IMG/VR virus record: IMGVR_UViG_2703718820_000020 | Coordinates: 1-23,523 of that record | DNA from: a virus | Taxonomy: Duplodnaviria > Heunggongvirae > Uroviricota > Caudoviricetes | Strand: one strand, 5' to 3' | Length of the DNA stretch: 23,523 bases | In this document: positions 6,001-9,000 of the stretch, piece by piece | Numbering within the stretch: the first letter of the stretch is position 1 | Layout: each line of letters opens with the position of its first letter | Position numbers: made by a program

Positions 6001-9000
6001 CTGGCAAAATCTATTGCAGAAATGGCGCTCGCGATTGAAGAGCCATTAACTCGTGTCCCTGCTTACGAATATCCGTTACTCTCCTGCGTACAGGCTGGCG
6101 CATTCACAATGGATGATATTTCGTACACCGCAAAGGATGCGATTAAATGGATCTCCACCACCACAAAAGCCAGTAACAAGTCGTTCTGGCTGGAAGTTAA
6201 GGGGCATTCAATGACCGCGCCACAGGGAGGTAAACCCAGCTTCCCTGAAGGTATGCTGATACTTGTTGACCCTGAACGGGAGATTGAGGATGGCGATTTT
6301 TGCGTGGCCCGAATGAACGGCGATGAATTCACCTTCAAACGATTCATTCGTGAGAGCGGTAAAGCGTACCTGGAGCCACTCAACCCACGATTCGAGATGA
6401 TTGAGTGTAACGAAAACTGCCAGTTTGTCGGAAAGGTCATCAAGTCGCAGTGGAATGATGAGACTTTTGATTGAACTCACAGGATGATATCAATAACCTT
6501 GCAAGGAGGTTATTTTATTTCCTTTTTCAGCGAAAAATCTCCGAGAACCCTCGCCCAATGCGGGCGGGGAGCAGTCGCAATCAAGTGAGCCATAAATGAA
6601 CAAAGACAAATCCTTGACACAACAAGTGGAAGAAATACTTAGCAAGCAAAAAGTTAGCGAGCAAGGAAAAATGATTCAATCATTAAAGAACATGGGCTTG
6701 ATCAACAAGCCTGTTTTTACTTTGGCTTATGGACCAGATATTACAACCTGCCAAATGCACCAATAACAAAACCCGGCCTTGGTGCCGGGTTTTGTTTGCC
6801 TCCTGCTCGCCCCACCATTTACCAGTGCGCCGTAAATTCCCCATTCTTCGGCGGTGAGGATGTCAAAGACGAAGGGAACATTAAGCCCCTGTGTGATGGT
6901 TGACTTCTTTTTCCAGCGCCTTATTAACAAAGGCGTTCAGTGATAAATCTTCTTCCATCGCCATTTCAGCGACCCGACGATGCAGTTCTGGATCAAGTCT
7001 GACGTTAAACACACCTTTAAACGGGGTATCAGGCTCCTTTCCATCCTCCACACAAGACTGCAAATACAGCTCAACCGATGTCTTAAACTCCTGTTCCAGT
7101 TCAGCTAATGTAGAAGCCTCATAAGTTACCAGGTCTCGAATAAACGCCAGTTTTCCGTACAGGATATTATTTTCAAAATCTGGTTCTACTGTACCTAAAT
7201 ATCCTTTATATTTTAGATGCTTCATAATACCCCAGCCTCTTTCAGATTCTGTTTAATCGCTTTCAGCGTTCCACCTTTAATATAACTTTCTGGATGTGGG
7301 CGATGCATTAATATGGTGTGGTTGATTTCAGCATTGAAAAACCGCACTCTTGAGCCCTGCATTTCCTTTTTGACATATCCCAGAGAGGAAAACAAAACGA
7401 CCAGCTCATCCCATTCAAACGTTTTTTTACTGTTTAAAAACTTTTCCAGTAGCTTATCTGCTTTCCCCATACCCACATAATCTCATCTTCGCTACATTGC
7501 AACTAATTATAGTTACAGGCAGTGTTTTTGTCAAAAGCCACCAAGCCCGCTGGGTTCTCTTTGACTGTTCGCTGCTTTTCTTCGTGTTATCAGGGGGCTT
7601 TTCCCTCACGCCAAATCTCACATAGAGTAACCGGCCCGCGCCGGTTTTTCTTTGACCGCACTCCGCTAACCGCCCCCTTGAAAAATAAATCACTTTAAAA
7701 ATCAGTTAAGTAATATTTTTTCACCCTCAATAACCACTAACGGTATTTACATAAAAATCACCGCAAGTTATATTTCTTTCAAGCCAGAAACATCGAGCCC
7801 TTACACAGGGCTACATAAATCAGTCGTACGGCGCGACTTAACCCGCCGCAAAATGCTCTTTAACAATCTGGAGCTTTACAGCGTCAATGACCTGTTTAGA
7901 CCCCTACACGTAAACGTGCTGTATCATCGGGTGCGATCCGGTCGATGAGAGAGTATCCCCGCGCGAGAGCGAGAACGGCGTGAGAACGGGCAACACTGGC
8001 AGGAAGTTGGCGCTGACCAATACAGGGAATGTTTTGGGGTGCAGGCGGCACCGCCAAAGCGTTTCTGAGAAAGGACGGTATTGACTGCGTGTGATGTCGG
8101 GGCTATATTTGGCGAACACCTTATAAAACGGGTGTCGGGATTCTCACCCCGCTGACAATCGAGGCGATACAGACGCGCCAGCGTCTTTTTTTGTATCAAC
8201 ATACACGCACATCTTATCAATGGTGGGCTGTATGGGGCCGACTTCGGTCGGGCTGGTTCCCTTGATTGCCAGTTGTGAGAACCCTGTACAGTCCACCGCC
8301 AGCGAGCTTCTCACCTCCAGCGGTGGTTATCAATCACCAATCAAGGAGGCTGCCATCATGGCTACTATCTCTCCCCTTTCTCGCCCATCCGTAACTATTG
8401 AAAACAGCAATGCCATCACTACGTCAATTGACATCGCAGAGTTCTTTGAGAAGCAACATCACCATGTTGTTCAGAAAATAGAATCCCTCGAATGCTCTGA
8501 GCAATTCTTAACCCGCAACTTTTCGCGGGTTAAATTTGAACACCGAGGCAATACCTATAACGCCTATCAAATCACCAAAAACGGATTCGTCTTCCTGGTG
8601 ATGGGATTCACTGGTAAAAAAGCCGCCGCTTTCAAAGAAGCCTACATTGCTGAATTCGATCGCATGGAAAAACAACTATGGGAACAGAAACAACTGGCCC
8701 TGTCTTCTCCTGCGATGAATATCAATTTTCCTTTATCGTGGTTTTCAGAGCATCACCCCTACGCCACGATAAACTATGTTGATCGCAAGGTTATCAGCCT
8801 TGATGCTTCCGTGCTCTTTGATATGCCAAGCCCAACTATGCGCATCCTCAACGAGCTACACAGCAAAGGCTATAACGTTGACGCCGCTGTCGCCGAATTT
8901 AACGCCTTCAAGCATCTGACGGAAGAAATGCGCCGTAAATTGCTGGACATTTCCCGCACATCGGAAAAGTCTTCCCGCTTTGGTTTCAACGTAAATCTTT

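Follow-up and report, generated by a model that had tools for sequence, protein, structure and literature searches.

A boxA-linked five-helix RNA as a candidate N-independent antitermination element in the early-left leader of an Eru1-related lambdoid prophage

The early-left leader of the lambdoid prophage studied here contains a conserved element in which a boxA of the ribosomal RNA (rrn) type is followed by an RNA domain of five predicted helices. The prophage DNA was analysed as one stretch of 23,523 nucleotides (nt), positions 1 to 23,523 of the IMG/VR record IMGVR_UViG_2703718820_000020 (hereafter the window). The element corresponds to the nutL region of phage phi80, and comparative analysis indicates that nutL of the phi80 type forms a large family of covarying RNAs found across Enterobacterales prophages, which is new as far as Rfam and the searchable literature show. 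We lean towards the view that it is a cis-acting, N-independent antitermination signal working with host Nus factors; its activity, its Nus dependence and its independence of N we infer from sequence. The comparative evidence fits an original prediction for this leader, in which the phage may use either a cis-acting RNA or the host's rrn machinery, but the conserved cis element proved to be the combination of boxA and five-helix RNA, which had not been noticed despite being the most conserved module of the leader. Neither of the two "boxB-like" hairpins belongs to the conserved part. The element and its subdivisions are as follows.

7854-8041, + strand: phi80 nutL homology block, 94.1% identity over 188 nt in a sensitive DNA search, starting at the first boxA base
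7854-7866, + strand: boxA, TGCTCTTTAACAA, the sole zero-mismatch match in the window
7867-7888, + strand: conserved 22-nt spacer between boxA and the structured domain, falling into two conserved sequence classes in the alignment
7889-8006, + strand: 118-nt five-helix RNA domain, matched by covariance model R1 with 137 bits (E = 4e-40)
7891-7896/7998-8003, + strand: helix P1, closing the domain
7902-7904/7988-7990, + strand: helix P2, inside P1
7907-7918, + strand: hairpin P3, the phi80 "nutL core", with a covarying stem
7919-7953, + strand: hairpin P4, carrying the invariant GGGYGCGAUCCGGU
7959-7978, + strand: hairpin P5, with at least six different, unrelated stem sequences in the family

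The 14-mer TGCTCTTTAACAAT (7854-7867), which had been described as an exact rrn boxA match, is indeed identical to the sequence in the rrnB leader of Escherichia coli K-12. In the GenBank annotation of phi80 the homologous block carries the labels "nutL regulatory signal" (M11919, 661-938) and "nutL boxA" and "nutL core" (JX871397), the core being the hairpin CACG-UAAA-CGUG that corresponds to window positions 7907-7918. Comparison with nut and put elements, suggested along with the original prediction, gave a 94% match to phi80 nutL and, with model R1 run against put regions only, no match to put. The edges of the homology block are sharp and mosaic, at 7854 and about 8041, and the element is identical in the window and in the Stx2a (Shiga toxin 2a) phage P13374, while both flanks differ. 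A boxA-like sequence was found at a fixed distance from the RNA domain in 62 of the 64 distinct upstream contexts; of the other two, one is a truncated copy and the other a point variant. In one viral contig (5937-6054), a natural-looking truncation has replaced boxA, the spacer and the 5′ strand of P1 by unrelated sequence.

The five-helix consensus was derived from an alignment of 31 diverse members. In the sequence-only alignment, 94.9% of the cells were paired, compared with 31-45% when the partners were slid by 1-3 columns, both sides had changed in 12 of the 30 pairs, and the observed covariation score was reached by none of 500 shuffles. A model-based alignment of 68 matches agreed with the sequence-only alignment on the structure; 12-13 pairs carry compensatory changes. 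A pattern built from the invariant core recovered about 88 true members in viral contigs, and 13 further members were present in representative genomes of Enterobacter, Citrobacter, Escherichia, Kluyvera, Kosakonia and Xenorhabdus, giving a family of about 100 prophage or phage loci in the Enterobacterales. Each locus has one copy, always located just 3′ of the cI/pL region, and neither the pattern search nor the covariance model detected a second copy (nutR) in the window including its pR operon, in phi80, in P13374 or in 130 other loci. When the segment 7700-8400 was searched against Rfam at a relaxed threshold (E up to 5), only IsrK and C4 were returned, with nothing in 7746-8115 and no riboswitch or ribozyme.

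The element is followed by intrinsic terminators. Within 1.5 kb downstream, a strong terminator on the same strand was found in 55 of 67 distinct loci (median distance about 550 nt), and terminator density was about nine times higher on the same strand (0.31 per kb) than on the opposite one (0.036 per kb). In the window, the pL operon contains the following strong terminators, all of which had been predicted before and were recovered by terminator scans.

8171-8186, U run to 8192, + strand: first terminator of the pL operon, the stem and U run of the IsrK terminator
18946-18964, + strand: second terminator
21257-21274, + strand: third terminator, just 5′ of xis (21286-21585)

The pR operon (window 1-5700, - strand, cro to Q) lacks both a strong intrinsic terminator and a nut-like site, and in phages of this type only the leftward operon seems to need early antitermination. 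The downstream terminators and the single placement after pL point to an antitermination role for the element.

The leader as a whole is predicted to consist of three separate RNA modules, namely the boxA-linked element (7854-8006), a small RNA (sRNA) gene of the IsrK type (8081-8192) and a C4-type antisense RNA (8216-8303), ahead of the regulatory gene rha. All leader features described earlier are present apart from a second hairpin as it had been drawn, but they do not form one unit, the 3′ half being the IsrK/C4 control module. The terminator at 8171-8192 is present in the form of the stem 8171-8186 plus U run, but it belongs to the IsrK sRNA gene and is not a plain leader feature. It is first of all IsrK's own, since the 3′ part of the leader forms a separate antisense control module for rha with a promoter of its own.

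Absence of N was confirmed. No N-type protein was found among the open reading frames (ORFs) of the pL operon in PHROG and Pfam scans, and tblastn and phmmer searches detected no homolog of phi80 N or lambda N in the window and none of phi80 N in Oslovirus phages. This absence is real but not new, because phages of the Eru1 type have already been published as lacking N, together with CII and CIII (PMC8044961). Across the family, a phi80 N homolog lies within 2.5 kb downstream of the element in only 8 of 88 loci. The first ORF after the element belongs to unrelated families, i.e. an acidic protein of 87 amino acids (33 loci), a basic protein of 70 amino acids (8 loci, directly following the element in HK225-type loci), phi80 N (8 loci) or rha (8 loci), and none of these first-ORF families was recognised as an antiterminator by Pfam or PHROGs. 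Neither phi80 N, lambda N nor the HK225_041 protein was universal when compared with all ORFs downstream of the element, and none of ten window proteins was universal among 102 family loci. Conversely, phi80 N homologs in Erwinia phage 59, Vibrio phage Seahorse and Salmonella phage STGO-35-1 occur in other gene contexts with no such RNA within 2.5 kb, which raises the question whether phi80 "N" is really a dedicated antiterminator. By these comparisons the RNA element is mostly unlinked to phi80 N, which is likewise new with respect to Rfam and the searchable literature.

In the mechanism that we favour, transcripts from pL (start near 7781) would carry the short hairpin, boxA (7854-7866), the 22-nt spacer and the RNA domain (7889-8006). 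BoxA would recruit host NusB and S10, as the identical rrn sequence does; binding of NusB/S10 by exactly this boxA sequence is established in rrn. The folded domain would act in cis on its own polymerase to give a termination-resistant complex without phage N, adding what boxA alone lacks, that is, resistance to intrinsic terminators. The modified complex would pass Rho termination in the untranslated leader of about 575 nt as well as the terminators at 8171-8192, 18946 and 21257 before xis and int. Transcripts from the IsrK promoter would remain unmodified, because they start downstream of the first module, and would mostly stop at the IsrK terminator to yield the sRNA. The C4-type RNA would mask the ribosome-binding site of rha, as P1 c4 does for icd/ant, and set a threshold for rha translation. 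For the arrays of clustered regularly interspaced short palindromic repeats (CRISPR), it is established that boxA can mediate antitermination of long untranslated RNA independently of N (PMC7665894).

Several points weigh against this interpretation. The role of the element in N-less phages is argued from comparative evidence, and in phi80 a protein partner is suggested by the name nutL of the region and by the adjoining gene called N. BoxA and Nus factors alone curb Rho-dependent termination much better than intrinsic terminators. Since they act mainly against Rho, readthrough at the IsrK terminator would rest entirely on the uncharacterised folded domain, whose single-sequence folding energy is unremarkable (z score = +0.14). 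The window and its Stx-phage relatives are more than 95% identical, too close for selection on the element within the lineage to be measured, and the presence of the element in the window could owe something to recent mosaic exchange.

As a more specific proposal, put forward tentatively and at somewhat less than even probability, boxA plus the five-helix RNA may constitute a new class of processive antiterminator, in which Nus recruitment by an rrn-type boxA is combined with a put-like, polymerase-modifying fold and no phage protein takes part. With the same reserve, it is possible that this class covers the early antitermination of many N-less lambdoid Enterobacterales prophages, including the Eru1 Stx2a phages of the O104:H4 and O103:H25 outbreaks.

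The closest known system is phi80 nutL, which shares with the window the 94% identity over 188 nt from boxA onwards, the position after pL, the five-helix RNA and a downstream terminator. In phi80, nutL is directly followed by N (98 amino acids), whereas the window has the sRNA gene, the antisense RNA and rha at this place, and the phi80 boxA reads TGCTTTTTAACAA while that of the window is the exact rrn sequence. In lambda nutL/N as in the window, boxA lies early in the pL transcript and precedes first a hairpin whose loop is rich in A (P3 in the window) and then a terminator (the tL1 equivalent). The window differs from lambda in lacking an N gene, a second (nutR) copy and a boxB of the GAAAA type, and in its much larger conserved RNA.

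The E. coli rrn leader (boxB-boxA-boxC, acting with NusA/B/E/G, SuhB and S4) resembles the window in having the identical 14-nt boxA, which in the window may likewise follow a short hairpin (the weak one at 7829-7848), and in working without a phage protein, as is proposed for the window. A boxC (UGUGUGGG-like, GU-rich) was absent within 40 nt after the window boxA, where the 118-nt structured domain takes its place. Action against Rho and RNA folding are the main known roles of the rrn complex, whereas the window operon contains strong intrinsic terminators.

The put RNAs of HK022 and HK639 have no boxA, require no Nus factors and act on the beta′ zinc-binding domain of RNA polymerase without protein factors. 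HK639, for which a putL-like antiterminator RNA is annotated, is like the window in the slot after pL, the left operon, the single copy, the lack of N and the terminators downstream, and it has the first ~50 nt of its leader in common with phi80-type leaders (CCATCGAAACGAAACATCGA...). The window element differs from the put RNAs in having a boxA and in being unlike them in sequence and structure. Model R1 gave nothing above 10 bits in the HK639 pL region or in two HK022 segments, a comparison made in one direction only, with R1 against put regions and no put model, and blastn found neither phage. The HK639 putL-like RNA and the window element look like alternative cassettes for one job. Window positions 7820-7838 are identical in 17 of 18 nt to the 5′ edge of the HK639 putL-like RNA (HK639 9305-9319), a patch that includes the second hairpin drawn earlier (7822-7838) and is probably a recombination scar.

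The strongest competing explanation, which we regard as unlikely, is that the element is a true nut site requiring an unrecognised, lineage-specific N analog. The window gene for such a partner would have to lie elsewhere than in the pL leader; an arginine-rich ORF is one candidate.

5138-5431, - strand: ORF of 97 amino acids (orf97) after cro, phrog_852, of unknown function, termed CII in some annotations

A hidden partner is suggested by the gene called N that follows the element in phi80 and by the basic 70-amino-acid protein encoded directly after it in HK225-type loci; N proteins are small and diverge fast, so that homology searches can miss them, and orf97, whose function is not known, contains FRKGNRARRSANTRLR. 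Set against this, the RNA core hardly varies, while the neighbouring ORFs belong to unrelated families, one of them that of the acidic 87-amino-acid protein of 33 loci; phi80 N homologs exist without the RNA, and in the window no ORF fits between pL and the first terminator. Orf97 was present in only 11 of the 56 loci with enough upstream sequence, and its occurrence follows the Eru1-type helicase module rather than the RNA element. The arginine-rich stretch of orf97 reads FRKGNRARRSANTRLRVYVQKYARASRG.

Slightly less probable still is that boxA alone shields the leader from Rho, in a CRISPR-like manner, while the intrinsic terminators are leaky and the domain serves sensing, RNA processing or stability, or control of the first gene. 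The CRISPR-array precedent (PMC7665894), the untranslated leader of about 575 nt and a riboswitch-like conservation of the junction nucleotides of the domain speak for such a division of labour. The fixed distance between boxA and the domain and their co-inheritance in 62 of 64 contexts argue instead for one functional unit; terminators lie systematically downstream, the variety of downstream genes makes gene-specific control unlikely, and Rfam gave no riboswitch or ribozyme match at E values up to 5. Finally, it is very improbable that the phi80-type nutL of the window is a relic without function that came along with mosaic recombination, as the sharp block edges at 7854 and about 8041 and the replacement of the phi80 N gene by the IsrK/C4/rha module might suggest, given that about 80 of 88 family members without phi80 N keep the structure with compensatory changes, that the element is the same in the window and P13374 though both flanks differ, and that three strong terminators still precede needed genes in the operon.

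Known beforehand were the lack of N, which is published, the nutL label in phi80, which comes from GenBank annotation, and both IsrK and C4. The occurrence of the predicted element in N-less Eru1 Stx2a phages directly 5′ of an sRNA terminator is new as far as can be seen from Rfam and the searchable literature, in which the question of how the Eru1 early-left operon passes its terminators was not addressed. A defined RNA element of 150 nt offers a concrete, testable hypothesis for this passage. If no phage protein were needed, the antitermination signal would represent a third solution beside lambda nut/N and HK022 put; it would also be the first coupling of an rrn-type boxA to a large folded RNA and bear on what the Nus complex needs to overcome intrinsic terminators. 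Eru1-type Stx2a phages (O104:H4 in 2011, O103:H25 in 2006) have been associated with a high frequency of haemolytic uraemic syndrome and with unstable lysogeny (PMC8044961). Placed directly 5′ of an antirepressor-like gene under IsrK/C4 control, the element could influence spontaneous induction and hence toxin output.

The leader upstream of boxA contains the pL-equivalent promoter and two short hairpins.

7746-7774, + strand: pL-equivalent sigma-70 promoter TTTACA-17-TATATT, 10 of 12 consensus positions in a consensus scan
near 7781, + strand: predicted pL transcription start
7796-7812, + strand: hairpin 1, AGCCCU-UACAC-AGGGCU, -9.2 kcal/mol, z = -3.6
7829-7833/7844-7848, + strand: weak hairpin CGGCG/CGCCG in the minimum-energy fold, ending 5 nt before boxA, in a position like that of rrn boxB, z = -0.55, overlapping 7822-7838

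The promoter had been predicted at the same position, and both hexamers align column by column with the annotated -35 and -10 of phi80 pL. Between 7775 and 8357, the leader of about 575 nt likewise lacks any independent + strand ORF reaching 60 codons, its sole long + strand frame being an in-frame extension of rha by 46 codons (start ATG 8220). Hairpin 1 had been described as carrying the lambda boxB stem. Both the hairpin and the stem are real, but the loop is UACAC, the position is upstream of boxA and the feature is specific to the lineage: it does not occur in phi80-type leaders, and its outermost pair is broken in P13374. All sequences carrying hairpin 1 are nearly identical. The second hairpin, drawn earlier at 7822-7838, differs from the fold predicted here, and shuffled sequences fold as well as the region does (z = -0.55). 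In 13 of 17 sequence classes, hairpins of unrelated sequence end 0-5 nt 5′ of boxA, and the same is seen in rrnB. A lambda-type boxB would be a hairpin 3′ of boxA with a GNRA-like purine pentaloop; P3 (CACG-UAAA-CGUG, 7907-7918) lies 40 nt 3′ of boxA and has an A-rich loop and a covarying stem. A search for operators shared between the cro-cI and pL regions (14-mers, up to 3 mismatches) gave no convincing repeat, only loose AAATCA and CACCGCA...ATATTTC similarities. In phi346 and other PA2-type Stx2a phages, the window leader was matched in two pieces, with about 105 extra bases forming an insertion inside the leader.

The 3′ half of the leader and the first gene of the operon comprise the following features.

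8081-8109, + strand: IsrK promoter TTGACT-17-TATATT, ending 7 nt before the start of the Rfam isrK match
8116-8191, + strand: IsrK-type sRNA, RF01394, 58.7 bits (gathering score 50)
8216-8303, + strand: C4-type antisense RNA, RF01695, full length, 77.1 bits (gathering score 45)
8257-8268, + strand: C4 loop, complementary to the ribosome-binding site of rha
8338-8349, + strand: C4 target over the rha Shine-Dalgarno sequence, CAAUCAAGGAGG
8358-9002, + strand: rha, a Rha-family regulator with an antirepressor-like C-terminus that matches antirepressor families

The UUCG hairpin noticed previously at 8238-8251 is present and was recognised as the first inner stem of the C4 RNA. According to the sequence, C8260 to G8268 of the C4 loop can form nine contiguous Watson-Crick pairs with C8338 to G8346 (CAAUCAAGG), covering the rha Shine-Dalgarno sequence. 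This pairing matches the P1/P7 system, where c4 RNA silences icd/ant. RNAduplex predictions of C4 or IsrK against flanking regions yielded long non-specific duplexes and were not used.

The window module resembles Gifsy-1 and the P1/P7 c4-icd-ant locus in its IsrK and C4 matches, in IsrK having its own promoter and terminator, and in the C4 loop complementary to the ribosome-binding site. As in the isrK-orf45-anrP locus of Gifsy-1, IsrK is followed by a small ORF whose two AUGs are spaced by 12 nt and then by an antirepressor-type gene; in Gifsy-1, short IsrK activates translation of the readthrough transcript (PMC4825925). In contrast to Gifsy-1 and P1/P7, the module of the window is part of the pL operon and follows an antitermination-type element, and its small ORF is joined to rha. 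This ORF of 46 codons from 8220, which runs over the C4 RNA (orf45-like, "Icd-like" in PGAP), has no stop and is in frame with rha, giving a possible product of 260 amino acids. A long rha-fused ORF is annotated in P13374 as well, and phi346 has separate ORFs. In other E. coli genomes, the IsrK-C4 segment precedes genes labelled "Icd-like" and "ash".

The window covers the early region of a lambdoid prophage in an orientation opposite to the lambda map. Besides the features above, it contains the following genes.

minus strand: Q, ninH, ninG, ninB, a Toprim primase (323 amino acids), a DEAH helicase (506 amino acids), two small ORFs and cro
5761-6474, + strand: LexA-type cI (cI-like repressor)
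6881-7476, - strand: HicA/HicB-like toxin-antitoxin pair, between cI and pL
+ strand, 3′ of the leader: rha, kil, gamL, recT, exo, ssb ... xis and int

From 7631 onwards the window shares about 95% identity with the Stx2a phages P13374, TL-2011c, phi191 and PA2 (genus Oslovirus), and the 506-amino-acid DEAH helicase together with the 323-amino-acid Toprim protein shows the Eru1 type. By these sequence criteria the window phage is a relative of Eru1-type Stx phages.

No tRNA or tmRNA was found in the window. The HicA/HicB-like pair appears to be driven by a perfect consensus promoter, TTGACA-17-TATAAT (7534-7506, - strand), and its slot holds a BsuBI restriction-modification system in P13374 and PA2. 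A strong terminator-like hairpin at 7629-7646 (+ strand; AACCGGC-CCGC-GCCGGTT followed by a T run) coincides with the start of the Stx2a-phage homology at 7631 and probably shields pL from upstream transcription. Further down the pL operon, sRNA-Xcc1 (RF02221) was matched over its full length at 18163-18252 (+ strand; 65.4 bits, gathering score 53), with a promoter-like sequence, TTGACA-18-CATACT, at 18042-18071 (+ strand), about 90 nt 5′ of the match.

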